From the NCBI GenBank assembly GCA_018304425.1, contig JAGVWE010000004.1, positions 96,001 to 160,000 of the forward strand: a DNA stretch of 64,000 nt. The letters run 5' to 3'. The notes beneath the pieces are model-generated. The model was not told where the DNA came from and did no database searches. It worked only from the letters and a program-made list of their open reading frames with translations. Both the position numbers and the translations under genes were made by a program. This stretch comes from Candidatus Iainarchaeum sp. Its GTDB lineage: Archaea; Iainarchaeota; Iainarchaeia; Iainarchaeales; UBA10219. Shown piece by piece: positions 2,924-34,929 of this stretch (the first letter of the stretch is position 1; each line of letters begins with the position of its first letter).

Positions 2924-3405
2924 CCACCATACTTCGCGTCAATCTCTTTCTTGACCAGTTCAAACAATTGCGTCGCGTCCCCGCCCAAGTGCTTTCCCGT
3001 GGCCCTCTCATCGGAAGGAAAAACCTCTTTGTCGCATGCCACGCCCACGCCGCTGTCCACGACGCCCCGCAACACGGCAAAAATTGTCGAGCCATGCACC
3101 GGCGTAAGCAAGCCAATGTCCAGCACCGCTTCCAGGAGGCTCTGTTTCTTGGCCTTCTTACCGCACAAGTAACCGGTCAAATAGGCGGCCGGCAGGTTGC
3201 CCGTGTGCCGGGTCCAACCCAGTTTTCTGAGTTCACTGGACTGCGCCATGACCAGGCACTCATCCCCCACCTGGGAGTTGTTGTTGGTTTTCCTCACCCC
3301 CAACCGCAGCTTCCCCGACTTGAGCAAAGCCAACCGCTTCTTATAGTTCGTGCGCTCCTCGCGCCTCCGCCGGAACGGCATCGCATACGTGTTGATCTCG
3401 GTCAT
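2920..3405 (-). CDS. rpl18: 50S ribosomal protein uL18
   Basis: FRRRRE.RTNY.KRL.LLKSG, GNLPAAYLTG, AVLDIGL; start set at MTEINT (3405). Confidence 0.95.
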   Translation of the reverse strand: MTEINTYAMPFRRRREERTNYKKRLALLKSGKLRLGVRKTNNNSQVGDECLVMAQSSELRKLGWTRHTGNLPAAYLTGYLCGKKAKKQSLLEAVLDIGLLTPVHGSTIFAVLRGVVDSGVGVACDKEVFPSDERATGKHLGGDATQLFELVKKEIDAKYGG

Positions 3406-3476
3406 TCCGAACCACCCTTTATGCCACTTGGTTCGGAATATTTCGAACCAATCCTGCATTCATTGTTCGAAATCAT
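3402..3476 (-). CDS. Putative 24-aa bridging ORF MISNNECRIGSKYSEPSGIKGGSE
   Basis: ATG immediately after eL19 TAA; its TGA overlaps the uL18 ATG (ATGA); fills the whole spacer. Confidence 0.45.
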   Translation of the reverse strand: MISNNECRIGSKYSEPSGIKGGSE

Positions 3477-3926
3477 TTATTTACCGCCACCCGTCGCCAG
3501 TTGCTCCAACTGCTTTTTTCCCTTGAAATAACCGCCTTTAACCATGTTATACAGTTTCGCGTACGTGAACTCGCCCTTCAGCTGGTCCTCCGCCCGCAGC
3601 TTCCGCAGGACGGCCCTTTGCGCGCGCACGTTCGCAATCCACCGAAGCCGCTGCTTGACCCGCGCCTTCTTGGTGCCCGAGCGCTTGCCTTCCCCGGACT
3701 TCCGGCCCTTCCGCTTCTTGGCCTGCAACACCCGGGCCCTGCCGCGGCTGTGCCCTGACTCCTTCTTCCACCGGATGACGCCGTCCTTGATGAGCAGCCG
3801 CACGTCTTCCTTGGTCATGGCTTCCTTCAAGCGGTCCAAGGCATCCGGGCTGATCCAAATCTTGGACTTCCCGCACTTCAAAACCGATGCCGCCAGTCTC
3901 CTGAGCTTGTTTGCCTGCATACCCAT
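3477..3926 (-). CDS. rpl19e: 50S ribosomal protein eL19
   Basis: RRLAASVLKCG..KIWI.P, SRGRAR, G.G.RSG.K.AR, LYNMVKGG.F. Confidence 0.96.
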   Translation of the reverse strand: MGMQANKLRRLAASVLKCGKSKIWISPDALDRLKEAMTKEDVRLLIKDGVIRWKKESGHSRGRARVLQAKKRKGRKSGEGKRSGTKKARVKQRLRWIANVRAQRAVLRKLRAEDQLKGEFTYAKLYNMVKGGYFKGKKQLEQLATGGGK

Positions 3927-3930
3927 CCAC

Positions 3931-4467
3931 CTAGTTGACTACCCTCAATCCCAACTCCAACGCTTTTTCCCTGATGGCAATCCGCTTCTTTCGTCCCACG
4001 TTGCCGTCAATCCGTATTACCCGGTCCTTGACGCCCGCCAACTGCGCCGGGTTCGCCACCAACGCCTCAAGCAAGCCCTGGGGGTGCAGGTTCCTGAATG
4101 CCTTCGGCGTGCGGTAGCCAATCTTCACCCAGGCCCCGTCATCGCGCTTGAACAGGGTGTCCATGCCCCGCGGCTTCCGCCACTTAGCCCACTTCTCCAA
4201 CGAAATCCGGCGCTTGTATTTCTCGCCAAACCGTCCCCTGAACGTCGGGTGCCGCCTGAGGTGGGCCAACACCGCCTGCAATTTCCGCAGTTCCTTGGAA
4301 AGCTTCAGCTTCACCTTCTTATGCCGGTGCTCGGCCCGCTTCTGCCTGCGCTTGCCTGCTTCCCGTGGCTTTTTGTCGGCCTTTGGCTTGGCCGTTGCAT
4401 GCGTTGCCGCCATGGGCTTCTTCCCATGCGCCTTGCCCTTGTCCTTCGTTGCTTTCGCCATAACCAT
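3931..4467 (-). CDS. rpl32e: 50S ribosomal protein eL32 with basic N-terminal extension
   Basis: WRKPRGMD, KIGYRTP, LHPQG, VGRKKR..I...A..LGLRVVN. Confidence 0.94.
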   Translation of the reverse strand: MVMAKATKDKGKAHGKKPMAATHATAKPKADKKPREAGKRRQKRAEHRHKKVKLKLSKELRKLQAVLAHLRRHPTFRGRFGEKYKRRISLEKWAKWRKPRGMDTLFKRDDGAWVKIGYRTPKAFRNLHPQGLLEALVANPAQLAGVKDRVIRIDGNVGRKKRIAIREKALELGLRVVN

Positions 4468-4471
4468 TCCC

Positions 4472-5014
4472 CTACTTCTTCACTCCCTTGTACGCAATGT
4501 AAATGCCGTCCTGGAACACCCGGATGTCCTTGCCCTTGATGCGCGTGGCCCGCTCCATGTTGGCAGCCGTCTGCCCAACGGCTTCCCGGTCCACGCCGCG
4601 CACCAGGATGTCCTTTCCCTTGATTTCGACCCTGGTGTCCTTGCCCACGATAGGCGATTTCACCGGGTGCTTGGCCCCGCCCACGTTCACGATTTCAACG
4701 GCATTCCCCGTAACCTTCACCGAAATCGGGAAGTGCGAGTACACGATTTCCAGCCGGTACTCGTAACCCTGCTTCAAGCCCGCCACCATGTTCTCGATAT
4801 GCGAAGCCACGGAACGCAGGATGGCACGCTTCTTCTTCTTGTCCTGGTCCATTTTGACCATGACGCTGTTCTCCCGCTTCTCCAGCGACAGGCCAGGCCC
4901 CTTGAATACGCGCACCACTTCCTTGCCGCCGGCCCGCACCTTCAAGGTGTTGCCGGTCAGCTCGGCCTGGACATCCTGGGGCAATGCCACGATTATCTCC
5001 GTTCCACTCGCCAT
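4472..5014 (-). CDS. rpl6: 50S ribosomal protein uL6
   Basis: YSHFPISV, GQTAANME, KDIRVFQDGIYI; start at MASGT. Confidence 0.96.
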   Translation of the reverse strand: MASGTEIIVALPQDVQAELTGNTLKVRAGGKEVVRVFKGPGLSLEKRENSVMVKMDQDKKKKRAILRSVASHIENMVAGLKQGYEYRLEIVYSHFPISVKVTGNAVEIVNVGGAKHPVKSPIVGKDTRVEIKGKDILVRGVDREAVGQTAANMERATRIKGKDIRVFQDGIYIAYKGVKK

Positions 5015-5024
5015 AAACATCCCC

Positions 5025-5417
5025 TTAGTATACGTAGGCCAGCAGCCTCCCACCAATGCCGCGCTTCTTGGCATCGGCATGCGTGAAAACCCCTTGGGGC
5101 GTGGAAACAATGATGGTTCCGATGTCCACGCTCGGCAGATACCGTTTCTCGAACTTCTCAAACTCGTCCTTCGCGACGGCATACCGGGGCTTGATGGCCT
5201 TGCACTCGTTTATCTTGCCCAACAAGGTAATCTTGTAGAGGCCTTCCCTTCCGTCATCCACCAACTCGTACGTGGAAATATAGCGTTTCTCCTGCATGAC
5301 CCGCAGGATTTCGCCCAGCAACCGGGAAGCCGGTCTTACCATGCACAACCGCTTGGACACCCCCTCATGGTTCTTGATGTTGATGAGGGCATCCGCCAAT
5401 GGGTCCGTTCTCGTCAT
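5025..5417 (-). CDS. rps8: 30S ribosomal protein uS8
   Basis: DPLADAL..IKN, DDGR.G, IKPRY, GGRLLAYVY. Confidence 0.97.
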   Translation of the reverse strand: MTRTDPLADALINIKNHEGVSKRLCMVRPASRLLGEILRVMQEKRYISTYELVDDGREGLYKITLLGKINECKAIKPRYAVAKDEFEKFEKRYLPSVDIGTIIVSTPQGVFTHADAKKRGIGGRLLAYVY

Positions 5418-5438
5418 GTTCCATTCCACCTTTACGCA

Positions 5439-5630
5439 TTAATCATACTTCTGGAAACCAATCTGCAACGCGAAGTCCTTGAAGCAACGCCGGCACAAGC
5501 CAATGCGGTACTTGCTGATCAAACCCTTCGAGTTACCGCACCGCCGGCAAGCCTTTTCCTTGCCCTTTCCCTTGCGGGGTTTCGTCCGGTTCAAGGGCTT
5601 CTGCTTCTGGATGATTTCCCGTTGCATCAT
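5439..5630 (-). CDS. rps14: 30S ribosomal protein uS14 (zinc type)
   Basis: CRRC...LCRRCF..A..IGF.KY. Confidence 0.95.
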   Translation of the reverse strand: MMQREIIQKQKPLNRTKPRKGKGKEKACRRCGNSKGLISKYRIGLCRRCFKDFALQIGFQKYD

Positions 5631-6185
5631 TTATTTCACTTCCACTCCAAACCTCGTTGAAACAAACTCCACTGCCTCGGCCTTCGAAACCGCGTGATGC
5701 CTTGGAATGCGCTTCTTGGCCAGCTTCCTGCGCTTGACGCGGTAACCCGGCCTTTCCAGGGCAATCAGCACGTCAAAGCCCCGGATGCCAAGCTTCGGGT
5801 CATACTTGGTCCCGGGCAGGTCAATGTACTCCTTGATCCCGAAACCGAAGTTGCCGTGCAAGTCAAAGTTCTTCGCCGCCAACTTGTTTTCCCTGGCCTG
5901 CAACGCGCGCTTCAGGAACTCGATGGCCCGTTCATCCCGTAAGGTGACCTTGCACCCAATCGTCAAGCCCGGTCGGATCTCCCAGGTCGGGTTTTTGACC
6001 TTGCACACCGTCAGCAAGGGCTTCATGTTGGTGAGCCGCTGCATGATGGTCTCGGCCTTCTTAAGCTCTTCCCCCGTCTGCCCAACCCCCATGTTCACGG
6101 TGACCTTCGCTATCCGGATCTCCCGCATCGGGTTGCCCGCAATGGGCGCCTGCCGCTGTTCCACCATCGCTTCCATGTCCATCAC
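5631..6185 (-). CDS. rpl5: 50S ribosomal protein uL5
   Basis: NPMREIRI.KVTVN.GVG, GNFGFGI.EYID.PG..YDP. Confidence 0.97.
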   Translation of the reverse strand: MMDMEAMVEQRQAPIAGNPMREIRIAKVTVNMGVGQTGEELKKAETIMQRLTNMKPLLTVCKVKNPTWEIRPGLTIGCKVTLRDERAIEFLKRALQARENKLAAKNFDLHGNFGFGIKEYIDLPGTKYDPKLGIRGFDVLIALERPGYRVKRRKLAKKRIPRHHAVSKAEAVEFVSTRFGVEVK

Positions 6186-6901
6186 TCGATTTCTACCTCG
6201 GGCTTCTTCGAGCCCACTACCAACACGTTCCGTTCAACGGTCTGGAATTCCTCACTACCCGCCTGCAAGCCAATCAGCTTGGGCCTGGACATGGTTCCTT
6301 CCACGACCTCCTTCACTTCGGCCACGGTTCCCACGTGGGTTCCCTGAATGAGGTACACCACGTGGCCCTTCTTCAATTCAAGCACGCCGGCAATCTTCCG
6401 CGCCGGCAACTCGAGTTTCAACGTCGAACCCACGCGGACGGCATTCTTTTCATCCATTAAGGTCGTGCCATCGTCCAAGGTAAGCTGCTGCTTTCCACCG
6501 GGCAGGGTGTGCTTGCGCAGCACCTTGCAGAGCTTGAAAGAAGCCTCCTTGCCGTCCAATTCCCTGAACCGGAGCCTCCCCTTGTTGTCCAGCAATGCGC
6601 GGTACTTTTTCTTGGCCTGCACGACGTCAAGCACGTCAAACAACCCCACCGGGAACCGCAGTTCCTTTCGCCGGACGCCGTTCACCTTGACTTCCGAGTT
6701 GTTCAACACCAGCCGTGCTTCCTTCTCGTTGTCCACCACTTGGAGGAGGTTCCTCAACGCGAACACGAGCGGCACGGAACGACTGCGGTTATGCGGCCCC
6801 GGAATCGTCTTCGTCGTCCAAGCCGTTTCCTTCCGGTTGAAATGCCTAACGACTGGCACGGAAAGTGCCTTCTGCGCCTTTGACTCACCTTTCTTCGCCA
6901 T
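6182..6901 (-). CDS. rps4e: 30S ribosomal protein eS4
   Basis: PGPH...SVPL, VKVNG..R...FPVGLFDV. Confidence 0.96.
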   Translation of the reverse strand: MAKKGESKAQKALSVPVVRHFNRKETAWTTKTIPGPHNRSRSVPLVFALRNLLQVVDNEKEARLVLNNSEVKVNGVRRKELRFPVGLFDVLDVVQAKKKYRALLDNKGRLRFRELDGKEASFKLCKVLRKHTLPGGKQQLTLDDGTTLMDEKNAVRVGSTLKLELPARKIAGVLELKKGHVVYLIQGTHVGTVAEVKEVVEGTMSRPKLIGLQAGSEEFQTVERNVLVVGSKKPEVEIE

Positions 6902-6904
6902 GCT

Positions 6905-7294
6905 TTATCCCTTTCTTTCCTTTCCCTTCTTGGCCGCCTTACCCCCCAACCGGAGGGCGTCAGCGGATTCTATCTCTTCAATCACCAAGTTACTGGGCCG
7001 CACCGGCACCAAAATCTCCTTTCCATCGGCTTTCCTGCGCTTCAAGCCCTCGATGAACACGAAGCCCTTGGTCCGGTCCACCCGCGAAATCTTCCCCGAA
7101 AAGCCCGCCCGGCCGCCCCGCACCAGCTTCACCTTGTCACCCTTCCGCACCGGCACAGCGCGCTTGCCCAGGCTCTTCCTCAGCTCCCCACTCAAGTGAG
7201 CCGACACCAGGACCTTCCGCTTGTGCAGGGGAAGGTTATACCAGGCCTTCCGCTGTTTTCCAGGCTTACTGCTTTCCGTCAACGCAACACCCAT
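6905..7294 (-). CDS. rpl24: 50S ribosomal protein uL24
   Basis: S.KPGKQRK..YN.PLH, VRKGD.V..RG KOW motif. Confidence 0.96.
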   Translation of the reverse strand: MGVALTESSKPGKQRKAWYNLPLHKRKVLVSAHLSGELRKSLGKRAVPVRKGDKVKLVRGGRAGFSGKISRVDRTKGFVFIEGLKRRKADGKEILVPVRPSNLVIEEIESADALRLGGKAAKKGKERKG

Positions 7295-7303
7295 GCTTTC
7301 ACC

Positions 7304-7702
7304 TTACACGATGGCCGGCGCCAGGCCCGCGACCTTCGGCCAGCGCTCACCCACTTCCTTTGCCACTACTCCCTTGATCTCGGAGCCCTTCGGCAGGCCC
7401 TTGTCATCCACCAACACCACGGCATTGTCCTCGAACTTCACGCGCACGCCGTCCACCCGCCGGTACTCCTTCCTCACGCGCACAATCACGGCGCGCTCCA
7501 CTTTCTTCCGGATTTCGGGTTTCCCCTTCTTCACGACCACGTTCACGAGGTCAGCGATGCCGGCCTGCGGCTGCTGCCGCTTCTTTCCCTTGAACCCGAA
7601 GACGCTGATGATCTCGCAGATCTTCGCGCCCGAGTTGTCCGCGCACGTGCACCACGACTTCTTGGTCAACCCCTTGGTCGGCGTTGCGTTAATGGCTTTC
7701 AT
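7304..7702 (-). CDS. rpl14: 50S ribosomal protein uL14
   Basis: CADNSGAK, VKFEDNA.V, GSEIKG.VAKEV; start at MKAIN. Confidence 0.97.
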   Translation of the reverse strand: MKAINATPTKGLTKKSWCTCADNSGAKICEIISVFGFKGKKRQQPQAGIADLVNVVVKKGKPEIRKKVERAVIVRVRKEYRRVDGVRVKFEDNAVVLVDDKGLPKGSEIKGVVAKEVGERWPKVAGLAPAIV

Positions 7703-7713
7703 AATCGCACCTT

Positions 7714-8127
7714 TTACTCCTTGCCCTCTTCCTTTACCGGGGCCTTGCCCTTGGGCCCCTTCTTTTCCTTGAACGCCTTGCCCACGTCCTCGTGGGAAAC
7801 GGCCTTCGCGTGGCCCTCCACGCTCAAAATCGTGAACGCCTTGGTCTTGCTGAGCTTCCGGGTTTCCCCAATCCGGACGACGTCCTGTTCTTTCGCGCCA
7901 ATGCACCGGGGATTGTGCGCGACCAGCCTGCTCCGCACGTTCTTATACCGCTCGTACTTGTGCACGTAATGGGTGAGGGTCCGCTCAACGATGGCCGTCT
8001 TGTCGGCCTTCGCGCTCACCACGCGGCCCGTGAAAATGTTTCCACGCACCTTAACCCCTCCGTGAACCGCGCACTTGCCGTCATTGCACACGCCAACTTC
8101 CCTTGCCATGGGTTCAGCCATAATCAT
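7714..8127 (-). CDS. rps17: 30S ribosomal protein uS17
   Basis: C.D..C..HG...VRG, KYERY, IGETRKLSKTK; start 8127 or 8121. Confidence 0.95.
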   Translation of the reverse strand: MIMAEPMAREVGVCNDGKCAVHGGVKVRGNIFTGRVVSAKADKTAIVERTLTHYVHKYERYKNVRSRLVAHNPRCIGAKEQDVVRIGETRKLSKTKAFTILSVEGHAKAVSHEDVGKAFKEKKGPKGKAPVKEEGKE

Positions 8128-8459
8128 CCCATCCCCTTTTCCCGGAATTCCTTCTTCCGAAATTCTTTCTTCCGAAAGAACAGCTTGACGCGGTCCTCGG
8201 GCCTCGCCACCAGCCGCTTCCCATCCACTTCCACTGCTTCGCCGCCCACCTCGACCAGGAACAGGGCCTCGTTCTTCGGCACCCGCTTCTCCCGGCCCCT
8301 GGACTCCAATACCAGCACGTTCCGGGTCTCGTCCACGATTCTTCCCCCGAAACCCGCCCGGCCGCGGTCCGAGGAAGCCAGTACCCTGGCCTCCAAGCCG
8401 ATGAGCTCGTGGCCCAAGAGGTTTTCCGCTGAAATGCAATAATGCCCGGTCTTAATCAT
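8124..8459 (-). CDS. rnp1: RNase P protein component 1 (Rpp29)
   Basis: HELIGL, G.IVDET.N, VPK...F, RPEDR. Confidence 0.92.
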   Translation of the reverse strand: MIKTGHYCISAENLLGHELIGLEARVLASSDRGRAGFGGRIVDETRNVLVLESRGREKRVPKNEALFLVEVGGEAVEVDGKRLVARPEDRVKLFFRKKEFRKKEFREKGMG

Positions 8460-8479
8460 TTTTCCACCTTTAATGCAAC

Positions 8480-8782
8480 TCACGAATCAATCAATTCCTG
8501 TTTATAGCCTTCCTGGAGCAGGATTTCCTTGGCCCGCTTCCGGTGCTCTCCCTGCAATTCAATCACGGTTCCCCGCAAGGTGCCACCACACGCGAGCTTG
8601 CTCTTCAGCGTCTTCGCCAACTCCTTGGCGATTTTCGCGTCCTCCACGCCCGAGATGATGGTCACAATCTTGCCAAACCTCCGCCGCAACGTCCCAATCC
8701 GGACTTTCTGGCTCTCCTTCGCGATTTCCTTGCAGACGCAGAGGTTCGTTGGCAAACCACAGGTAACGCACACCGTGTCCAT
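8480..8782 (-). CDS. Translation initiation factor SUI1/aIF1
   Basis: C..CGLP..LCVC..IAKE.Q, LKSKLACGGT, IELQG.H. Confidence 0.95.
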   Translation of the reverse strand: MDTVCVTCGLPTNLCVCKEIAKESQKVRIGTLRRRFGKIVTIISGVEDAKIAKELAKTLKSKLACGGTLRGTVIELQGEHRKRAKEILLQEGYKQELIDS

Positions 8783-9007
8783 TTACTTGGCCTCACCCCT
8801 TGCATCCACTTGCTTGGCTTCCGCCTTCTGACCCATAATCGTCAACACCCGCGCAATGCCCCGCCGCAGGTTCCTGATTTTCGCCGGCTTCTCGGCCCTC
8901 GACCCCGAAGCCACTGAAGCCCGTTCCTTGGTCAGGTCCGTGCGCAACTGCACGAGCCGCTCCTCGAGCTCCACCACGCTGAGCTCCCGCAATTCACTGG
9001 CCCGCAA
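8783..9007 (-). CDS. rpl29: 50S ribosomal protein uL29
   Basis: ELR.LS..EL...L..L, IR.LRR.IAR.LT; TTG start. Confidence 0.93.
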   Translation of the reverse strand: MRASELRELSVVELEERLVQLRTDLTKERASVASGSRAEKPAKIRNLRRGIARVLTIMGQKAEAKQVDARGEAK

Positions 9008-19738: not shown

Positions 19739-19783
19739 AACAACTCCCATGACCCTTTGCAGGGAAACGTTTATAGGCTCTGC

Positions 19784-20557: not shown

Positions 20558-20559
20558 GC

Positions 20560-21381: not shown

Positions 21382-21465
21382 ATGGGGTGCGACCCCGAAT
21401 AAATAGCTTTGGCCAGCCTTCCGGCAAGGCCTTAAAAGCTTTCAACGACAAACAGCGGAGGAATT

Positions 21466-21774
21466 TCACTCTTTCAATTCGATTTCCATGTGGACGTTTT
21501 CCGGGATTTCCACGCGCATGATGCGGCGCAAAGTCCTTTCGTCGGATTCAATGTCGATGAGTCGCTTGTGGATGCGCATCTGCCAGTGCTCATAGCTTTC
21601 AGTGCCGCCTCCACAGGGGCTCTTCCGGGTGGGGATGACGAGCTTCTTGGTGGGCAGGGGAATGCTGCCCGAGTGCTTGACGCCCGTGCGTTCCGCGACG
21701 TCCAGGATTCTCACGCAAATGTCTGTCAACTTGGCGTAGTCCGCTGAACTCAGTTTTATCCTGGCTTTCTGCAT
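21466..21774 (-). CDS. rps10: 30S ribosomal protein uS10
   Basis: ARIKL.S, IPLPTK, RKSPCG.G, MRIHKRLID. Confidence 0.97.
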   Translation of the reverse strand: MQKARIKLSSADYAKLTDICVRILDVAERTGVKHSGSIPLPTKKLVIPTRKSPCGGGTESYEHWQMRIHKRLIDIESDERTLRRIMRVEIPENVHMEIELKE

Positions 21775-21789
21775 TCCGATGCCTTTCCC

Positions 21790-21830
21790 GAATAAAAATA
21801 TGGATGGGCCGGCCGCAAGGCCGGTTCCCT
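21790..21830 (-). terminator. GC hairpin plus U-rich tract between EF-1a and uS10
   Basis: mRNA CCGGCC-UUGC-GGCCGG followed by AUAUUUUUAUU. Confidence 0.45.
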
Positions 21831-21834
21831 GCCA

Positions 21835-23103
21835 TTACTTGCGTTGGTTGATGCTCACGACCATGCCGGCTGCCACGGTCTGGCCCATGTCCCGGATGGC
21901 GAACCTGCCCAGTTGCGGGAACTTCTTGAATTCTTCCACGCACACGGGCTTCAACGGCTTTACCTTGACTATTGCCGCGTCGCCGGTCTTCAAGAACTTG
22001 GGGTTCTCTTCCTTGGTGGCCCCGGTCTTGGGGTCGAGTTTCTTCTGCAATTCCACCAGGGAACAACTCAACTGTGCGGTGTGAATGTGGAACACCGGCG
22101 TGTAGTTGACCGGAATAGCGGTGGGGTGGTTCAAGACCACGATTTGGGCCGTGAAGTCGGTGGCCACTGTCGGCGGGTCGTTGGGGTGTCCAACCACGTC
22201 GCCTCTCGCGCAGTCGGTCTTTTCCAGGCCGCGCACGTTGAACCCGATGTTGTCCCCGGGCAGGGCCTGCGTCAACTGCTCGTGGTGCATTTCCACGGTC
22301 TTGACTTCGCAGACCTTTCCCGTGGGGTTGAAGATGACCTTGTCACCGGGCTTCAGGATGCCGGTTTCGACCCTGCCAACTGGCACGGTGCCAACACCCT
22401 TGATGTTGTACACGTCCTGGATGGGCAGCCTCAAAGGCTTGTCGGTCGGGGGCGTCGGAGCGACCAAGGCGTCCAAGGTGTCAACCAAGGAAATGCCCTT
22501 GTACCAGGCCATCTTGGGGGAAACCTTTGCCACGTTGTCGCCTTCCCAGGCCGAAATGGGCACGTACTTGACCTGGTCAGCCTTGTAACCGATGCCGGTC
22601 AAGAGCTTGGACACGTCGTCCTTCATGGCGGTGAACTTCTTTTCCTCGTAGCCGACCTCGTCCATCTTGTTGATGGCAACGACCAATTGCTTCAAGCCCA
22701 TGACCTGCGCGAGGAACGCGTGTTCCTTGGTCTGGGCCTGGACGCCGTCCTTGCATGACACGACCAGCACGGCCGCGTCGGCCTGGCTGGTTCCCGTGAT
22801 CATGTTCTTGACGAAGTCCCGGTGTCCAGGAGCGTCAATGATGGTGAAGTCGTTCTTCTTGGCCTTGAACTTCCGGTAGGAAACGTCGATGGTGACACCG
22901 CGTTCCCTTTCCTCCTTCAATTGGTCCATTACGTAAGCGAATACAAAGGTTCCCTTTCCCTGGGCCTCGGCTTCCGCTTTCAGTTTGCGGTAGTCTTGTT
23001 CGCTCAAAGCCCCGGTATCGTAGAGCAGTCTCCCGACTGTGGTCGACTTTCCGTGGTCGACGTGGCCGATGAAGACCAGGTTCATGTGATTTCTTTCTGC
23101 CAT
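21835..23103 (-). CDS. tuf: Elongation factor 1-alpha
   Basis: [26 protein letters not shown]; SD GGAGGTG before ATG 23103. Confidence 0.98.
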
Positions 23104-23307
23104 TAATGCACACCTCCAAACTTGCCGGATACGCCGGCCCTCACAAGTCAGAAGTTGCCGAAAAATCGTGCAACCCACAAATCTTGTTAGCCCCGCCCGG
23201 AGACTTGCCCCGTGGGGTTATAAGCCCCCTACAAGGGGGTTTACCATAAATCCTCTGCCTCAAGAAGGTTTAAAAAGCCATCCTCCGGCTTTTGCCGTAA
23301 AAGGCTA

Positions 23308-26300
23308 TTAGTCCATGAAAAAAGAGGCGGGCTTTGGCTCGGGTTCCATGCCCTTCCGCGTCCGGACCTCGCGAATGGTTTTGATTTGGAGTTCCTTGGG
23401 AAGCGGGTCATAGCCGGCGTACTCGGCCTGCCAGACAGCCCTTCCCTGGGTTGCCCCCCTAATCGAGGAACTGAACCCAATGAGTTCTTTCACGGGCGCA
23501 ATCCCGATGATGATGGTGGTGTCGCCCTCGGTCCGCATGTCCGTTATTTGCGTGCGCCTGGAGCCCAGCTCCCTTGAAACGGCCCCCATATAGGTTTCGG
23601 GAACCGTGATGTTGAGTTTTTGCTTGGGTTCAAGCATGATGGCGTTGCCTGAAAGCATGGCCGCATAACAGCCGCGCGTCACGCAGGGCAGCATCTGGGC
23701 CGGGCCCCTGTGAATGGAGTCCTCGTGCAAGGTCGCGTCATCCAAGATGATTTTCACGCCCTGCACTTTTTCCTTGGCCAGCGGCCCCTCATTCATCGCG
23801 TCCTGGAACCCCTGGATGACGAGTTCCTTGGCCTCGTGCAAGGCCACGATTCCCCGGGTCGCGTCGACCAGCATGTTGTGGCCATGAATGCACCAGGTCT
23901 TCTTGGCTTCGTCGCGGTCAAAGCCCATGTCAATGAGTTTCTGCACGATGACCGTGTCCTTCAGCCGTATCTTGGCGTTAATCCTTGATTCCACGAGCTT
24001 TTCAAACAACTCCGGGGGAATGGGTTCGGCCCAGATTTTGAGTTTGTTGTGCTTGTTCGGGCTCTTGGCTTCGATGACCGGGGATTCTTTCGTAATCGTT
24101 TCATGGTAGACGACGATGGGGTCGGAAGTCGTGATCTCGACACCGTGGGTCTTCTCAATCCGGTACTTGTTGATGTCCAAATGCAATTCGCCCATGCCCG
24201 ACAACAGGTGTTCCCCGGTTTCCTGGTTGAGAGTAGCTCTCAGGTTCGGGTCCTCCTTGCACAACTGCCGGATGACCTCGATGAGCTTGGGCAGGTTCTT
24301 GGTCTGCTTGGCTTCGATGGCAATGGTTATGACGGGCTCGGCCGTTGACATGAACGACTCGAATTCCTTCATGGCCACCTCGGAAAGGGTTTCCCCGGCA
24401 TAGATTTCCTTGATGCCTACCAGGGCCGCGATGTTCCCGGCCGGGATCTCGGATACCTCGACGTAGTCCGCGCCCATGAACACGCCGACCTTCTGGATGA
24501 TGACCTCTTTTTGGGCTCCGATGAGCTTCAACCGCGTGCCCTTGCGGATGCTTCCACTATACACCCTTCCCGTCGCGATGTCTCCCGCGTGGGGGTCCAC
24601 CGATACGTCCGTGCACATCATGGAGAACGGGCCCTTCTCGTCGCAGGCCAGCATGGCCTTGCCAATCTCGCTGTCCAGCTCTTCCTTGCCCCAAATCCTT
24701 GGGATACGGTATTTCTGGGCTTCCAGGGGGTTCGGCAAGTGGAGGATCACCATTTCCAGGATGGCCTCGTGCAACTGGGACTTCTGCGCCAGCTCTTTCT
24801 GGTTTTCCTTGGCACAGTAATTGTAGACGTCCTTGAAGGTTATCCCCGTGCGCTGCATGTGGGGCACGGAAATCGCCCAGTGGTTGTAAGCGGAGCCAAA
24901 GCACACCGAGCCGTTCTGGACCTTCACCTGCCAGTCGTTTTCCTTGCCTGGCGGCGCATTCTTGGCGATCAGGTTGTTGACTTGCCCGATGATTTTCACG
25001 AACTTTTCCTGCATCTGCTTTTCGTCAATCTTGAGCTCGTTCACGAGCCGGTCCACCTTGTTGATGAACAACACGGGCTTCACGTACTCCTTGAGGGACT
25101 GCCGGCAAACGGTTTCCGTCTGCGGCATGACTCCCTCCACCGCGTCCACCACGAGGATTACGCCGTCAACTGCCCTCATGGCCCGGATGACTTCGCCGGT
25201 GAAGTCAATGTGCCCCGGGGTGTCGATGAGGTTAATCAGGTGGTTCTGTCCCTTGTGCGAGTGCACCAGGGAAACGTTGGCCGCGTTGATGGTTATGCCG
25301 CGTTCCTGTTCCTGGTCCTCGTAGTCCATGAACTGCTGTTTCCCGGCCAGGTCAGGGCTTATCAGCCCGACCGAGGCAACCAGGTTGTCCGAGAGGGTGG
25401 TGTTGTGGATGATGAATCCATTGCCGATGAAGTTATGCGTTTCTTCAACCGAGAAATCGTAAACGAATTCTTCGCCTTCAACCACTTCCTTTTTCGTGAC
25501 CATCGGCGTGAAGCAGTCGAAAAAGGTTTTTTCAAGGCCCTGGATTTCTTCCCAGGCTTCTGCGTCCTTGATTTCGGGATTTCCAATGAATGAATAGACT
25601 TTTTCAAAGAAAACGTTTAGATTGGTTTGATAGACCGGCTGTTTTCTGAACTCGATGGCTTCAAAGCTCTTGGGCAGCGCCTTTAATTGGAGGCCCATTC
25701 TTTGCCGGAGCCCCCTCAGGAAATCCTGCGCAATAGGCGTTAAGTCGGTGTTCCTGTTCGGGCTATCGGATATTGCCACAAACCCGAGCAGCTTTTGGTT
25801 TTTTCTATTCAATCGGAAGCCGATTTTTTCAGCGAAAACCTTCATGTTGGCGCCTGAAATGTAAAGATTGCTCTTCTTTTCATTGAACGTTGAAAGGCAG
25901 CCAAATCGCAGCAACAGCAAGCCGGTGTCAAGCAGCATACCCTTGGATTTGCTGGAAAGACTTGCCGCCCGCCTGCTTCCCTCCACCGTTCCATCCGTGT
26001 CAAAATACCCCTGCAGGAATGCCTTAACAACCCCATTTGGCGCACTTTTAATGGGTTCAGGCACTTGAATGCTTTCCGCCTTCCTTTTTTTGGGCAACCC
26101 GAAAAAGCCGGTTAGTATTTTGTAAAATGTCAAGCCACCGCCCAAATCGATTCTGGTGGCTTTTCCGGCATACTTGCGGGTTTTCGCCTGCACGCCGAAG
26201 ATTTTTTCCATGATTTGTTCAATTGCCCGAATAATCGGCTTGTCTTCGTTGGTTATCCTTATTTCTTTCCCGCGGCTTCCGCCATCCCCCCAGATTAAGC

Positions 26301-27156
26301 CCAAGAGGTAGGCAACTTCACTGAAGTCGGCCTCGGTTTTCGGCAGTTTCACGCCCACTGAGGACTTGCCCGCCTTCCGGATGCTTTCCCTGAAGTTGAT
26401 CCGGTCAATGGAGTCATAGGTCTGGGTGTATCCAAGGGTCTGGCATAGGCCGAGATAATCCGCCAACCGGTACCGGCCATTGTAAACACAATGATAAAAG
26501 GTTTTGTCGCCCAACCGGGTGTTTACGATTTTCCCGAGTTTTTGCAAGCCGAACTCGAGCGCTTTTCGCTTGATTTCCTGCGCCGCTCTTTCCTCCACCC
26601 AGACAAAAAAACCACAGTCTTTCGCAAGACAGTTCAGCAACCGTGTTTTAAGCGCTTCAAGCGATTCCGGGGCTACATTCACTATCCTCGGCGCCAAAAC
26701 AAACTCGTTTTTATCAATGTCAACGGCCTGTCTTTCCAGTATTCTTCCTTCACCGTCCATGCAAAGGAACCGGTGCTCAGGCGTCGTTTCCACTTTCAAG
26801 CCGTTTGAAAATAGGAGTCTGACCAGTTTCCCGCCGTTTTTCAGCTTCCATGCATGCGTTATGTTTTTTGCGCACGATTGTTTTCCCTGTGTGTCGAATG
26901 AAGCGGCTTTCAGGCCCAAGCCGTCGACATTATAGATTAGTTCTTTCTTGGTTTCCTTGACAAGCTTGCCTTGCCTGGCAGCCCGCTCAAAAAGTTCTTG
27001 GGCGGTTGGAAAGGAACCATTCGCCAAGTAAACTTTAGTGGCGCCTGACACACACTTGCCGTGGTCGATGTGGGCCACAATGCCCATGTTCCGGATGTTG
27101 GGTCGGTTCGCCATCCGGGTCTGGACGTCCCGCACTACATCTTCTTTCTTGGCCAT
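23308..27156 (-). CDS. fusA: Elongation factor 2 precursor containing an intein
   Basis: AHIDHGK|intein|TTLSD, RGITI, DTPGH, NKVD, diphthamide loop LHEDSIHRGPAQ; 731 aa after splicing. Confidence 0.97.
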   Translation of the reverse strand: MAKKEDVVRDVQTRMANRPNIRNMGIVAHIDHGKCVSGATKVYLANGSFPTAQELFERAARQGKLVKETKKELIYNVDGLGLKAASFDTQGKQSCAKNITHAWKLKNGGKLVRLLFSNGLKVETTPEHRFLCMDGEGRILERQAVDIDKNEFVLAPRIVNVAPESLEALKTRLLNCLAKDCGFFVWVEERAAQEIKRKALEFGLQKLGKIVNTRLGDKTFYHCVYNGRYRLADYLGLCQTLGYTQTYDSIDRINFRESIRKAGKSSVGVKLPKTEADFSEVAYLLGLIWGDGGSRGKEIRITNEDKPIIRAIEQIMEKIFGVQAKTRKYAGKATRIDLGGGLTFYKILTGFFGLPKKRKAESIQVPEPIKSAPNGVVKAFLQGYFDTDGTVEGSRRAASLSSKSKGMLLDTGLLLLRFGCLSTFNEKKSNLYISGANMKVFAEKIGFRLNRKNQKLLGFVAISDSPNRNTDLTPIAQDFLRGLRQRMGLQLKALPKSFEAIEFRKQPVYQTNLNVFFEKVYSFIGNPEIKDAEAWEEIQGLEKTFFDCFTPMVTKKEVVEGEEFVYDFSVEETHNFIGNGFIIHNTTLSDNLVASVGLISPDLAGKQQFMDYEDQEQERGITINAANVSLVHSHKGQNHLINLIDTPGHIDFTGEVIRAMRAVDGVILVVDAVEGVMPQTETVCRQSLKEYVKPVLFINKVDRLVNELKIDEKQMQEKFVKIIGQVNNLIAKNAPPGKENDWQVKVQNGSVCFGSAYNHWAISVPHMQRTGITFKDVYNYCAKENQKELAQKSQLHEAILEMVILHLPNPLEAQKYRIPRIWGKEELDSEIGKAMLACDEKGPFSMMCTDVSVDPHAGDIATGRVYSGSIRKGTRLKLIGAQKEVIIQKVGVFMGADYVEVSEIPAGNIAALVGIKEIYAGETLSEVAMKEFESFMSTAEPVITIAIEAKQTKNLPKLIEVIRQLCKEDPNLRATLNQETGEHLLSGMGELHLDINKYRIEKTHGVEITTSDPIVVYHETITKESPVIEAKSPNKHNKLKIWAEPIPPELFEKLVESRINAKIRLKDTVIVQKLIDMGFDRDEAKKTWCIHGHNMLVDATRGIVALHEAKELVIQGFQDAMNEGPLAKEKVQGVKIILDDATLHEDSIHRGPAQMLPCVTRGCYAAMLSGNAIMLEPKQKLNITVPETYMGAVSRELGSRRTQITDMRTEGDTTIIIGIAPVKELIGFSSSIRGATQGRAVWQAEYAGYDPLPKELQIKTIREVRTRKGMEPEPKPASFFMD
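25402..27054 (-). mobile_element. Intein (551 aa) with LAGLIDADG homing endonuclease in the EF-2 P-loop
   Basis: Cys1 CVSG, block B TPEH, LLGLIWGDG and FLQGYFDTDG, VYDFSV..THNF, terminal HN followed by Thr+1; lower GC. Confidence 0.95.
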
Positions 27157-27161
27157 GGCGA

Positions 27162-27764
27162 TTACCTGGAACTCAACGCGATTCTTTCGACCTCGTCGCG
27201 TCGCTTGATGGAGAAGCTGGTGTTATCCCCTTTGGCGGCCAGGATCAGTTCCTTGGCGAGGGCCTGCTCCGCCGAGGTCTTGCTGTTGAACGACTGCGCG
27301 AAGGCCGCCAAGGCAATGTTCTTCAGCGCCTCGTCCACCCGCTTCATGGGCGCGATGTCGACCGCGACCGTGTAAGAGATGCCGCCCCGCTTGATTCGCG
27401 TGATGTCCTCCCTCGGAGCAGAGTTCTCGATGGCCTGCACGAGCACCTGCACGGGGTTTTGCTTGGTTTCCCTTTCAGCAATGGCAAAAGCCTTTTCCAC
27501 GATTTTCAGGGCCTGGATCTTCTTCCCGCAGCTGCCCCGGCCCCGGATGTACTTCCCGGACAGCTTTCGCTTGCCCTGGCCCGAGCGCATGACCTTGTTG
27601 ACCAGCCTTTCCACGACGCTCATGCGGGCCTTCTGGAAGGGGTATTCCTGCATTTTGCCGAACGTGTGGGGAACCATCTTGGTCGCCAGGTCCAGGTAAT
27701 TGGCGAGGCTCACATCGCTTATCTTCACGTCCGTGGTCTCCCAGTGGTCAAAAACCTTTCCCAT
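27162..27764 (-). CDS. rps7: 30S ribosomal protein uS7
   Basis: VERLVNK.M, NPVQVLV.AIEN.APRE, ERIA.SSR. Confidence 0.97.
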   Translation of the reverse strand: MGKVFDHWETTDVKISDVSLANYLDLATKMVPHTFGKMQEYPFQKARMSVVERLVNKVMRSGQGKRKLSGKYIRGRGSCGKKIQALKIVEKAFAIAERETKQNPVQVLVQAIENSAPREDITRIKRGGISYTVAVDIAPMKRVDEALKNIALAAFAQSFNSKTSAEQALAKELILAAKGDNTSFSIKRRDEVERIALSSR

Positions 27765-27774
27765 ATCAATCCCT

Positions 27775-28206
27775 TTACCGCTTTACCTTCTCCTTTCTGC
27801 CGGTGCGAAGCATTTCCAGGGCCTGCCCGTTCACGTGCGTGACCTTGTATTTCACGCCCCACAAGTCCCCCACCGGGCCATGCTTCCTTCCCCCGATGCC
27901 CGAAATGATGACTTCATCGTGTTCGTCAATGTACTTGATGGCGCCATCCTTGGGCGCCAAGGCCGTTACTTCCACGCCGTTCTTGATGATTTGCACGCGC
28001 ACGCATTTCCGTATCCCGGAATTCGGTTGCCTCGCCGTAACCCCGCGCTTCTCGAGGACGATGCCCCTTGCCTGGGGCGCGCCCTCCAAGGGGTCGACCT
28101 TTTCCTTGAGGAGCCTCCGCTTGAAGGAGGCTTTCTTCTTCCGCCACTTCTTCCGGTTGTCCTCAAGACTCGCCGCTGCAAATTCTCCTTTCGCCATAAA
28201 CATCAT
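27775..28206 (-). CDS. rps12: 30S ribosomal protein uS12
   Basis: [31 protein letters not shown]; start 28206 or 28197. Confidence 0.97.
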
Positions 28207-28616
28207 CTGATAATCAAATCAGCTACCCCGTAATTTCTTTTCAATATTTCCTTTATCTTCCTCAGCTTGCCCAGGCTTTGCAGGGCCTTCTTCTTGTGCT
28301 CCGCTTCAAACGAGGCAATCAGCACCTTCCGCCCCTGCCGCTCCGAGAACGCGGTTTCCTTGATGGGAACCTTGTAAAACGCTTTCCTCACAAAGTCCAC
28401 AGCACTTTCCGCGTACTCGAACAACTCAATGCTCTTTCCAATCCTCTCCCTGACCTTCGCAATGGTCTGGCCGTTCTTGCCGATTGCCAGCCCCATTTGC
28501 TTGCCGTTGACCAGGAAAATGATTTCATCCTCCTTGGCCAGGCAGTCCCTCGCCGAAACCCCGGCAAGGTCCTCCAACGCGTTGATGTAATGGATCTCTG
28601 TCTTGCCCAACTTCAT
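28203..28616 (-). CDS. nusA: Archaeal NusA (KH domains)
   Basis: MG.AIGKNG..I; position between eL30 and uS12. Confidence 0.9.
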
Positions 28617-28632
28617 TCTTCCACGTCCAAGG

Positions 28633-28950
28633 TCAGGCCTTGGCCTCGCCACCCAGGCTCAGCACGTTGCTCTTGCCCGGCTTGACAACCACCATGGAGA
28701 GAATGCTGAATGGCTTCCCGCAAACAGAGCCAAGCTCCAAACCCGTTCCCATGAACTCATAAACGGGTACACCGGCAACGCTTGCCTGTGCCTGGAGCTT
28801 TTCCTTTACAAGCTTCGGGATGTTCCCGCTAATTATTAGTAGTTGTCCGTCTCCCTTTAAAATACTTTTCTCGGACTCCCTGCGCCCGAAAAACACTTCC
28901 CCGGAGTCAACCGCCCTCCGGATTTCCTTGCCCGCATCCACTGCCGCCAT
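28633..28950 (-). CDS. rpl30e: 50S ribosomal protein eL30
   Basis: AV.SG.V..G, GT..ELG..CGKPF, PG.S.VL. Confidence 0.95.
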   Translation of the reverse strand: MAAVDAGKEIRRAVDSGEVFFGRRESEKSILKGDGQLLIISGNIPKLVKEKLQAQASVAGVPVYEFMGTGLELGSVCGKPFSILSMVVVKPGKSNVLSLGGEAKA

Positions 28951-28952
28951 AC

Positions 28953-32905
<3,953 letters not shown>

Positions 32906-32907
32906 CT

Positions 32908-34731
32908 TTACACCTTGTCCCCGATTTTCAGTTTGGGGTTGACTCCCAACGCCTTCAGCTCGTCCAACAACAACTTGAACCCGTAACTCATCTCAACGGG
33001 GTACACCTTGGAGCCGTCGCAGATCGCGCAATACTTCTTGTTCCGGATCTGGTCGTTGATGCCGATGACCCCGCACTTCTCGCAGACCAGTTCGATGGCC
33101 TTGTCCGAGTCCTCGATGAGTTTCTCGTGCAAGAGCATTGCGGCACCGTGGCCCACCAGGGTCTCGCCTTCCATTTCACCGAAGCGGAGGCCTCCCTCTT
33201 TTTCCTTTCCCTCGGTCGGCTGCCGGGTGAGAATCTGCACCGGGCCCCGTGACCGGGCCTGCATCTTGTGCGCGACCATGTGGAACAGCCGCCGGTAAGC
33301 CACGACCCCGGTAAAGATTTCGCCTTCGACCCGTTGCCCGGTCGTGCCATCGTAGAAGACTTCCTTGCCGTCCTCCCGGAAACCGTGTTCCTTGAGGATA
33401 TCGGCCATTTCCTGCCTATCGCTTGCCGCGAACGGCGTGCCATCCACTTCCATGGCCTTCAACGAACCGGCCTTGCCTGCCAGCATTTCCAGCAGGTGCC
33501 CCATCGTCATACGGCTTGGCACCGAGTGCGGGTTCAGGATGAGGTCGGGCTTCATGCCGTCCTTCGTGAAAGGCATGTCCTCTTCGGGGATGATGGCGCC
33601 AATGACTCCCTTCTGGCCGTGCCGGGAACTGAACTTGTCGCCCAGCGCGGGCACCATCTCGCTCCGGATCTTCACCTTCACCAGCTTGTTGCCAGACTCC
33701 CCCTCCGTGACAATGACCTTGTCGACGAAGCCGTGCTTGTTCTTGCGAATCGTGAGACTGCTTTCCCGTCTCTTTTCCTTGACCACGCCGAACTCCGAGA
33801 TTTCCTCCAAGAACCTTGGCGGGGACGTCCGGCCCATGATGGCCTCTTTTTCCTGGACAAAGGACTCGACTCTCGGCAGGCCGTCCTCGGACAAGTGCTT
33901 GTAGACTTCCGGGCCCATGAACCCCACTGTTTCCTCGACCGGCACCTCGAACTTGTCAATCTGCCCGCCCGGATACCGGTTCTCGGCCGCCTCATACGTG
34001 CGAAAGTAAGCGCTCCTGGCCAGGCCCCGGTCAATGGCTCCCTTGTTCAACACCACGGCATCCAAGATGTTATACCCATAATACGGCATGATGGCCACGA
34101 CAAAGTTCTGGTTCGTGGGCCGCTTGTGGAGTTCCAGGACATCCATGGTCTTCGTCTTCACCAGCGTTTTCTGGGGATAGTACAGCAGATAACCCTCCGT
34201 GTCCGTGCGCAGGTTGTAGTTGATGCCGCTCAGGCCCTGGGCCTGCTTGAACATCTTGGCCCCGTGCAAGGCCTTTCCAGCCATGTTGTGCTGCAAGTAG
34301 GGAATCATGGACGTGATGACCGATAGGATGCCGATGGCCGCAACCTCGATGTGCGTGTGCTCCTTCGACAACTCCTCTTCACCAGTCGCAATCAAGGCGT
34401 TCTCCTCTTCTTCCGCGTCCAGGTACTCGATGACGCCCGCATCCACGAGGTCCTGCCAGGCAAGCTTGCCTTCCCTGACCTGCTTGAGTATCTCCTCGGT
34501 CAGCTTGGGCTTGCCGTTCTCGACCACGATGAGCGGCCGCTGCACCCTCCCCGAGTCCGTGTTGATGTAGATTTCGTTCGTGTCCTCGTGGAACGCGATG
34601 TTGACGGAGGGCACGATTTTCCCCTGCCGCCGCCGCTGCACCAGGTCGTGCACGAGCTTCTCGCCGCTGGGGTGGAACCCAATCAGGCGGCCATTGATGT
34701 ACACCCTGGACTTGCTTTCCTTCGCGCTCAT
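32908..34731 (-). CDS. rpoB1: RNA polymerase subunit B'
   Basis: GDKFSSRHGQKG, PSRMT, RQPTEG, GGLRFGEME, Zn ribbon. Confidence 0.98.
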   Translation of the reverse strand: MSAKESKSRVYINGRLIGFHPSGEKLVHDLVQRRRQGKIVPSVNIAFHEDTNEIYINTDSGRVQRPLIVVENGKPKLTEEILKQVREGKLAWQDLVDAGVIEYLDAEEEENALIATGEEELSKEHTHIEVAAIGILSVITSMIPYLQHNMAGKALHGAKMFKQAQGLSGINYNLRTDTEGYLLYYPQKTLVKTKTMDVLELHKRPTNQNFVVAIMPYYGYNILDAVVLNKGAIDRGLARSAYFRTYEAAENRYPGGQIDKFEVPVEETVGFMGPEVYKHLSEDGLPRVESFVQEKEAIMGRTSPPRFLEEISEFGVVKEKRRESSLTIRKNKHGFVDKVIVTEGESGNKLVKVKIRSEMVPALGDKFSSRHGQKGVIGAIIPEEDMPFTKDGMKPDLILNPHSVPSRMTMGHLLEMLAGKAGSLKAMEVDGTPFAASDRQEMADILKEHGFREDGKEVFYDGTTGQRVEGEIFTGVVAYRRLFHMVAHKMQARSRGPVQILTRQPTEGKEKEGGLRFGEMEGETLVGHGAAMLLHEKLIEDSDKAIELVCEKCGVIGINDQIRNKKYCAICDGSKVYPVEMSYGFKLLLDELKALGVNPKLKIGDKV

Positions 34732-34929
34732 TTAAGCTTCACCCGCCACAACTGCCGAGGCGTCAGTTGGCACCGCATACGGCCGCCCCATCTCGCTGCT
34801 GCTCGATGGGGCATAAATATCTGCCGAGGCGTCAGCCGAGTAGGCCCCCATGGGGGTTGACACCGCAGGCATGCCCCATTTCGCCCCGAAGGGGTTCGAT
34901 GGGGCGGTAGGCTTATTGGCCAGCGTCAT
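34732..34929 (-). CDS. Putative 65-aa bridging ORF carrying two element copies
   Basis: ATG overlaps rpoB'' stop (ATGA), TAA abuts rpoB' ATG; TAPSNPFGAKW resembles TVPSSPFGARW of 12922-13020. Confidence 0.5.
   Translation of the reverse strand: MTLANKPTAPSNPFGAKWGMPAVSTPMGAYSADASADIYAPSSSSEMGRPYAVPTDASAVVAGEA
34752..34910 (-). repeat. Intercistronic element copies C (34873-34910) and D (34785-34812) with 15-nt direct repeat
   Basis: GCCCCAUC-GA-...-GA-[AG]AUGGGGC twice; ctgccgaggcgtcag at 34752-34766 and 34821-34835. Confidence 0.8.

Follow-up and report, generated by a model that had tools for sequence, protein, structure and literature searches.

Hairpin insertions at operon junctions of a Candidatus Iainarchaeum genome and the short frames that bridge them, candidate relays of translational coupling

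Coupling of neighbouring genes by termination and reinitiation at overlapping stop and start codons is said to have been described by Huber et al. 2019, and in coupling of the unmasking type the ribosome on the upstream gene melts a hairpin that lies over the next start. Among the hairpin repeats of prokaryotes, the repetitive extragenic palindromes (REP) and bacterial interspersed mosaic elements (BIME) with their REP-associated tyrosine transposases (RAYT), as well as the ends of the insertion sequences (IS) IS200/IS605, are imperfect hairpins with a conserved short flank, largely extragenic and strand-biased; to our knowledge, neither the REP/RAYT nor the IS200/IS605 systems make a target duplication. 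The subject of the present work is a 64,000-nucleotide stretch of DNA of the archaeon Candidatus Iainarchaeum sp. (the window, G000:C3:96001-160000, of a 1.48 Mb genome with 58% G+C, 7 contigs and, by our own crude gene finder, 89% coding content), in which four long spacers (sp1 to sp4) between genes for ribosomal proteins and RNA polymerase hold hairpin DNA and a micro-open reading frame (micro-ORF) started by ATG. According to Pfam, the flanking genes are eL19 and uL18 (sp1), uL23 and uL2 (sp2), uL3 and uL4 (sp3), and the two halves of RNA polymerase subunit B, rpoB'' and rpoB', with rpoH upstream (sp4), and all genes around the four micro-ORFs lie on the minus strand. The frames had been proposed in a sequence-only reading of the window, and translation of the minus strand confirmed that all four run from ATG to stop at the lengths given there:

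3402..3476, minus strand: micro-ORF of sp1, 24 aa, TGA stop, between eL19 (3477-3926) and uL18 (start 3405)
11492..11593, minus strand: micro-ORF of sp2, 33 aa, TGA stop, in frame with uL2
12922..13020, minus strand: micro-ORF of sp3, 32 aa, TGA stop, between uL3 (13031-14194) and uL4
34732..34929, minus strand: micro-ORF of sp4, 65 aa, TAA stop, between rpoB'' (34926-36491) and rpoB' (32908-34731)

The geometry of their ends is likewise as that reading had described it. In sp1, the start abuts the eL19 TAA (0 nt) and the stop forms an ATGA overlap with uL18; in sp2, the start shares a TAATG overlap with the uL23 stop and the stop lies 6 nt ahead of the uL2 ATG; in sp3, the start follows the uL3 stop by 10 nt and the stop lies at the uL4 GTG (GTGA) or at most 5 nt from it; in sp4, an ATGA overlap with the rpoB'' stop opens the frame and its TAA abuts the rpoB' ATG (0 nt). 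The stop/start spacing typical of termination-reinitiation (an overlap of 4 or 1 nt, or a few nt) is thus present at all four, and the micro-ORFs share with the ATGA and TGATG junctions of archaea and bacteria the 4-nt or 1-nt overlaps or gaps of 0-10 nt, here at both ends; the ancestral junctions of these genes were such overlaps as well. The difference is that two junctions are chained here by a relay frame which was made by insertion and is not conserved, the coupling being in this case a prediction from sequence. The three frames of sp2, sp3 and sp4 read the hairpin in one common frame on translation, and the last eight residues are identical in sp2 and sp3, both as earlier noticed. Such frames would combine repeats resembling REP or miniature inverted-repeat transposable elements (MITE) with termination-reinitiation coupling, and a search of the available literature, supplements excluded, turned up neither this repeat nor relay frames of the kind.

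For comparison, 40 genomes of relatives were used, all of the same order and 0.5-1.5 Mb in size. The placement and small genomes of these relatives are the sole basis on which the host is called a DPANN-type archaeon; among the homologues of uL4, those at 62% identity or less carry the source names Diapherotrites, Iainarchaeum or Micrarchaeota, and closer ones (P0003 to P0008) are 79-87% identical. The uL23-uL2 junction measures at most 30 nt in 18 of the 21 relatives' loci where both genes were matched (10 more loci were unmatched), the uL3-uL4 junction is tight in 28/30 loci, the rpoB''-rpoB' junction measures at most 24 nt in 21/28, and eL19 and uL18 are joined by an ATGA overlap (9 loci) or lie within 24 nt in 27/28. 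The uL4-based scans of genome and metagenome contigs gave one locus each, with L001 too distant and L090 usable; in L090, which is the closest relative found (uL4 79% and uL2 76% identical), uL23 and uL2 meet in a TAATG overlap with no spacer, and the insertion in sp2 is delimited as follows:

11486..11590, minus strand: sp2 insertion, 105 nt, separating the ancestral ATG from the one that uL2 uses now

The L090 contig ends at the uL4 start and so provides no comparison for sp3, where a low-depth contig of a related organism (one DNA run) joins 12874 to 13033 through 34 other letters, so that on the gene strand a stop is followed after 5 nt by a uL4 which starts with ATG and resembles protein P0006. 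Since the relatives are tight or overlapping at all four junctions, the four spacers are insertions of hairpin DNA into overlapping or few-base junctions, three of them from one repeat family and one an unrelated palindrome. In each of them the ATG of the micro-ORF stands at the former start of the downstream gene (TAATG in sp2, ATGA in sp1 and sp4, a few nt past the stop in sp3), and the start of the micro-ORF is thus the inherited start codon of the downstream gene, not a newly evolved one. What the spacers present is an insertion, an inherited start, an open frame, and a termination at or beside the working start.

All inserts are bracketed by duplicated pieces of the junction. These measure 3-5 nt in sp2 and sp1, and about 15 nt in sp4, where VKLK and a stop are read on both sides with 3 differences, all silent; these codons recur in the relatives, whose two genes overlap by ATGA or stand a short spacer apart. 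The two copies in sp4, the second of which carries a Shine-Dalgarno (SD)-like stretch, are:

34926..34940, minus strand: left copy of the sp4 junction, comprising the final four codons of rpoB'', its stop and, overlapping this stop, the ATG at which the micro-ORF begins
34728..34742, minus strand: right copy of the sp4 junction, with the SD-like stretch and the working rpoB' start

Elsewhere in the genome, the duplicate at C3:313537-313717 comprises 12 perfect nt, and that at C6:128858-129002 comprises 25 perfect nt and 12 re-coded nt. In the latter region (C6:128780-129015, L046), the last 12 codons and the stop of a FAD/GGR-like gene are repeated past the element, with 25 nt identical and then four codons silently re-coded (6/6 differences silent or stop-to-stop), and the bridging frame stops on the second copy of the gene end, just before a gene for a trypsin-like protease. 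At C1:15900-16300 (L032, L154), a PD-(D/E)XK nuclease has the 21 residues that follow its initiator Met encoded in duplicate, once on either side of an antisense element, with 10/10 differences silent beside 33 identical nt, and the upstream copy opens a frame which stops 7 nt ahead of the real start. Among the relatives, 21-nt duplicates flank the uL3-uL4 inserts of G015 and G040, the latter containing the same type of hairpin as the repeat element, and a 13-nt duplicate with type-B-like flanks is found at the rpoB junction of G016. The lengths of the flanking duplications are variable (3, 5, 12, 15, about 25-43 and >60 nt), with no fixed target-site length. Both genes around the C3:3136xx spacer (G000:C3:312625-314530) hold one T2SSF domain each, of 270 and about 300 aa.

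The bias towards silent differences between the copies (10/10 at C1:15900-16300, 6/6 at C6:128780-129015 and 3/3 in sp4, counting stop-to-stop changes as silent, and likewise, by eye, in G040 and G016) could be explained if the insert were excised between the two copies at the RNA or DNA level, since each copy would in that case need to code for an identical gene end, with the micro-ORFs confined to the form before excision. Such excision is nevertheless very improbable: sequence inspection gives a 2x2 internal loop where archaeal splicing requires a pair of 3-nt bulges with four base pairs between them, direct repeats are unable to pair with each other, and four DNA runs, in which uncovered parts carry no evidence, contain no variation inside sp1 and no reported element-free joint of the same organism at sp1 or sp2, the joints at sp3 being those of low-depth diverged contigs. 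An archaeal bulge-helix-bulge intron was rejected because of the symmetric 2x2 G-A/A-G loop, a judgement made on the hairpin with its wider flanks not searched. Mis-assembly was also rejected as a source of the duplicated gene ends, as the sp4 stretch is found whole in 5 runs of 4 studies (some of them possibly the source of the assembly) and a perfect stretch beside a saturated stretch is unlike the divergence of strains. Of the 17 runs found, none that holds the sequence was listed as RNA. The candidate of a diversity-generating retroelement failed as well, the differences being by eye not adenine-specific and no match to a reverse transcriptase being found in the genome, which is 92.55% complete.

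The hairpins of sp2, sp3 and sp4 are one repeated sequence, which the repeat search and blastn detected on five further contigs; nhmmer gives 21 places in the genome at E < 1e-4, a covariance model of 18 copies gives 29 matches at E <= 1, and one more copy was recognised by eye at C6:134693-134735. The core of the element consists of a 7-8 bp stem, an unpaired tandem G-A/A-G (the 2x2 internal loop) and a short upper stem or triloop, preceded by the 5' flank CCTACCG (type A) or ATTTATG (type B) and followed on the 3' side by a conserved linker and then a second, variable hairpin. The copies in these three spacers and the unrelated insert of sp1 are:

11504-11559, minus strand: element core in sp2, by blastn and the covariance model
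12934..12989, minus strand: element core in sp3, 70.7 bits with the covariance model, the top score in the genome
34858..34913, minus strand: type A copy in sp4, CCTACCG-type 5' flank, 61.5 bits
34768..34820, minus strand: type B copy in sp4, ATTTATG-type 5' flank, closest to the Leu and Ser tRNA leaders
11486..11519, minus strand: 34-nt 3' module, copy 1 (sp2), identical to 12916-12949
12916..12949, minus strand: 34-nt 3' module, copy 2 (sp3), by repeat search, blastn and fold
3404..3451, minus strand: structure of the sp1 insert, a perfect 8-bp palindrome at 3428-3451 with an alternative 11-bp hairpin at 3404-3439

The 34-nt module is a 9-bp hairpin that holds the stop of the micro-ORF and an SD-like GTGA just before the downstream start, and independently assembled contigs end at its repeat. 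The palindrome of sp1 belongs outside the family, and blastn found no other copy of it in the genome. The compensatory changes in the hairpin that had been reported from the sequence-only reading proved to be real: 91% of the cells are paired, 7/13 pairs are changed on both sides (29 cells), 0/500 shuffles reach the covariation score, and the slid controls collapse. Within the order, the element was matched in 24/151 genomes including its own (23/150 others; E <= 0.01), with 29 matches in G085, 25 in G040, 15 in G076 and 10 in G019, and its flanks are conserved in the G040 copies too.

Most copies of the element share the orientation of the downstream gene or tRNA. A copy in the same direction precedes eight tRNA genes (Arg, Cys, Ser, Leu, Leu, Ser, Pro, Val), and at six or seven of these the final hairpin ends, by eye, 0-4 nt from the mature tRNA 5' end. 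One copy (G000:C3:164033-164096) is read in the frame of the micro-ORFs within the gene of a 455-aa E2 acyltransferase, where it forms part of the linker that joins the Biotin_lipoyl (residues 5-76) to the E3_binding (152-187) domain; the remaining copies occupy spacers between genes or 5' regions, with a few antisense or convergent to their neighbours. Such a distribution, together with the covarying hairpin, the unpaired tandem G-A pairs and flanks conserved across families of the order, and the same type of hairpin in the uL3-uL4 spacer of G040, might indicate that the hairpins are cis-regulatory or processing RNA elements (protein sites, stabilisers, cleavage signals) of tRNA precursors and highly expressed operons, to which the frames are irrelevant. 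That the matter ends there is quite unlikely, considering that no match to Rfam 15, ribosomal-protein leaders included, was obtained in the 64-kb window at the gathering score, that the occurrence among genomes is patchy and most relatives lack a spacer at these junctions, that one copy is within a coding linker, that copies beside tRNA genes of G040 are found in both orientations, and that the insertion events are marked by flanking duplications; such an RNA role is, moreover, compatible with the relay and not exclusive of it. An automatic survey of 28 G040 copies, made without gene strands, showed no clear pattern of placement. A tRNA scan of the 64-kb window gave none, and in the whole genome many tRNA introns of ~48-98 nt are predicted, a few others being implausibly long and probably false calls of the intron mode. 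At G000:C4:131082-131109, a motif scan picked out a hairpin followed by a stretch that may be the conserved core of RNase P RNA.

In comparison with REP/RAYT, the element likewise forms an imperfect hairpin beside a short conserved flank, with most copies outside genes and a strand bias, in a genome with one Y1 gene; however, that gene (C1:81-437) is flanked by other hairpins and not by the element. As a multi-copy, short, non-coding sequence it corresponds to a MITE, but a target-site duplication of fixed length is absent. The Rickettsia palindromic elements and other MITE-like repeats that insert in frame into genes, as described in PMC10969869, are likewise short, multi-copy, hairpin-forming and open in one frame, and one copy of the present element, that in E2, sits in frame in a flexible protein linker; the differences from that description are that only 1 of ~29 copies is inside a gene here, most being in tRNA leaders and gene junctions, that the duplications range from 3 to >60 nt, and that the host is of the DPANN type. 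No terminal inverted repeats were evident in an anchored listing of 27 copies, the ends of which are blurred, with no dedicated search made. The sole Y1 (IS200/IS605-type) transposase gene, G000:C1:81-437, stands at a contig end, and a TnpB-like frame of 400 aa (G000:C6:132820-134022) is located ~700 nt upstream of the copy C6:134693-134735; as the enzyme of the element both were rejected, no link to it being found and the Y1 flanks carrying different hairpins.

Bridging of the element-bearing spacers is far above chance. Five of the seven gene-gene spacers with a sense element and without tRNA are bridged, as compared with 6/260 (by an ATG frame) and 27/260 (by any start) of the element-free co-directional spacers of 40-250 nt genome-wide; sp2, sp4 and C6:1289 were found automatically, and sp3 and C3:3136 by curation, in which the longest-ORF downstream start was replaced by a homologue-supported start or ATG. 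Of the 18 copies, 7 have an in-frame ATG upstream of the hairpin, namely those of the five operon spacers and of the E2 gene, as compared with 0/6 tRNA-leader copies and 0/5 other copies. At the same operon junctions other genomes of the order contain unrelated inserts (L030 in G015, L005 in G013, L139 in G010, L107 in G012, L021 in G024), several of them with a duplication of the junction and a short frame that overlaps its neighbours on either side by ATGA or TGATG, and among the relatives' 13 long spacers at the four junctions an ATG frame bridges 6 (G016 and G012 at rpoB, G010 at eL19-uL18, G024 at uL23-uL2, G040 and G015 at uL3-uL4) and a GTG or TTG frame 3. The covariance model did not recognise the inserts in G012, G015, G024, G011 and G010 and gave the rpoB insert of G016 only 8.5 bits (E = 1.7); since it misses these inserts, the relay pattern in the relatives is not tied to one repeat family. 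The bridges of G016, G040 and C6:1289 of the genome itself run in frame into the repeated final codons of the upstream gene and end on its repeated stop, and termination would thus take place in its ancestral context.

The frames may still be neutral relics, given automatically by an inherited start, a stop-free repeat and a duplicated stop, while the downstream genes initiate directly or from internal promoters. Several points fit this and weigh against a function in coupling. In 18/18 copies, tRNA leaders included, no stop interrupts the hairpin-reading frame over at least 57 nt, so that openness across the element needs no local selection, and with an inherited start codon and a frame free of stops much of the bridging comes free. 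The shuffle test by which the sequence-only reading had proposed to judge chance bridging gave a divided answer: in 5000 dinucleotide shuffles of each whole spacer, bridging by an ATG frame was uncommon (0.19 for sp1, 0.037 for sp2, 0.037 for sp3, 0.084 for sp4), but with 8 nt kept fixed at each end it was frequent in sp1 (0.46), sp2 (0.50) and sp4 (0.23) and rare in sp3 (0.015), C3:3136 (0.027) and C6:1289 (0.062). The copies in sp2 and sp3 are sisters, not independent; two of the seven sense-element spacers are unbridged (C1:279848-280116, which at 269 nt is beyond the size range of the 40-250 nt controls, and C6:134679-134784), as are 4/13 of the relatives' long spacers, mostly A/T-rich. 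The tallies in the relatives were read by eye from 13 spacers of at least 39 nt, the gene starts in the genome-wide control are the longest-ORF starts of the crude gene finder, and the z-scores of the folds are modest, from -1.6 to -2.5. By eye, the SD-like stretches ahead of the new starts match the 16S 3' end, and TATA-like A/T-rich stretches are present at the 5' ends of sp2, sp3 and the type-B copies. Both unbridged spacers carry T-runs or TATA-like stretches (by eye), which suggests that they separate distinct transcription units.

A wholly neutral origin of the frames is a substantial alternative, and yet a rather unlikely one. It leaves aside that the inherited ATG is in the open frame in 5/5 operon spacers, that the proportion of bridged element spacers, curated ones included, exceeds that of the ATG-bridged controls, that unrelated inserts in the relatives are bridged too, and that in three cases the bridge and the duplicated upstream gene end share one and the same stop. 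In the predicted folds, moreover, the start regions are paired: the 11-bp hairpin of sp1 (centroid, z = -2.3) pairs the SD-like stretch and the uL18 start region, sp2 and sp3 have the micro-ORF stop and the SD-like GTGA inside the 9-bp hairpin, 5-7 nt before the start, and four hairpins are predicted in sp4. The match of the SD-like stretches to the 16S 3' end also fits the relay. As in coupling of the unmasking type, the predicted hairpins cover the uL18 start region and the stop/SD-like stretch before uL2 and uL4, with the difference that the melting ribosome would here translate the relic frame, not a real gene. The earlier proposal that the frames ferry ribosomes through the spacers and unmask the next SD sequence stands in that the frames are non-random and the sp1 and sp2 folds bury the initiation region, the translational role itself being a matter of inference; that the hairpins belong to a dispersed family, that the spacers are insertions and that the starts are inherited had escaped that reading.

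It is extremely improbable that the products of the micro-ORFs are small proteins with a function of their own or leader peptides with a regulatory one. The frames are open and begin with ATG, and by codon score the reading frame concerned ranks first of the three; but Pfam gave no match to the four peptides, a homologue search with the 65-aa frame among proteins of 35-114 aa returned the query itself only, the codon scores lie between the 2nd and the 18th percentile of gene windows (low values which the neutral alternative would equally explain), the changes that compensate the hairpin are non-synonymous, and the same DNA stands untranslated in the tRNA leaders. The peptides therefore look unselected, in agreement with the sequence-only reading on this point, and its other suggestion, of leader peptides, found no support.

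The reading preferred here, to which we give a little better than an even chance, is that the relic frames are retained because they keep termination-reinitiation coupling through the structured insert. The hairpin DNA was inserted immediately past the former start codon of the downstream gene, and on each side of it stands one copy of a short part of the junction: the left copy retains the upstream stop and the old start codon, and the right copy the ribosome-binding stretch and the working start. The old start now opens a short frame through the stop-free repeat, ending at or beside the new start. Ribosomes leaving the upstream gene would reinitiate on this frame, unfold the hairpins on their way, stop close to the real start and there reinitiate a second time, now on the downstream gene, so that the coupling of essential genes could survive a structured insert of 70-200 nt. 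Ribosomes probably use the micro-ORFs as such a relay, judging from the arrangement of the junctions. In Haloferax and E. coli a spacer of about 20 nt almost abolishes termination-reinitiation, according to Huber et al. 2023 (PMC10666635); because of this, an insert of 70-200 nt would uncouple essential genes unless the two junctions were chained. Only insertions with the relay property would be tolerated in these operons, the peptides having no role, and survivorship would be the simplest driver, as in a genome so densely coding junction inserts may persist only if both gene ends are re-created and the flow of ribosomes is kept. A broader and more speculative proposal, which we regard as unlikely, is that of an undescribed class of insertions in small DPANN-type genomes, namely hairpins which enter the overlapping junctions of essential operons with junction duplications of variable length, are 'translationally transparent' and are tolerated only with a relay frame, the silent re-coding next to identical stretches pointing to a mechanism of insertion or maintenance that copies or selects the two gene ends and is unlike known transposition.

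Three further features of the window concern its annotation and repeats. At 12923-12955 (minus strand), the longest uL4 frame (289 aa) opens at an ATG within the hairpin, the uL4 proteins of near-identical strains in databases (P0002) begin at the downstream GTG pair, and the 289-aa frame is an annotation trap. The uL23 frame at 11593-12084 (minus strand) has 163 aa, with the Pfam domain only at residues 83-143 and the alignments of relatives beginning at residue 29-83, so that either the protein has a long extension at its N-terminus or, as may also be, its start is miscalled. At 42638-42988, there are three tandem copies of a unit of 108-123 nt, 73-84% identical (repeat family D1).

In compact archaeal genomes, essential genes are packed with overlapping stops and starts, and in the genome studied here structured repeats of 70-200 nt sit in such junctions of the operons for ribosomal proteins and RNA polymerase. 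A caution for annotation is that the micro-ORF frames are not genes, and that the downstream starts are easily miscalled within the element, as in the 289-aa uL4 frame. If the relay works, it would be a route by which selfish or regulatory repeats enter the least permissive sites of a genome, chained termination-reinitiation would be able to cross long structured RNA, and the arrangement may be viewed as a natural design for insulated polycistronic expression.

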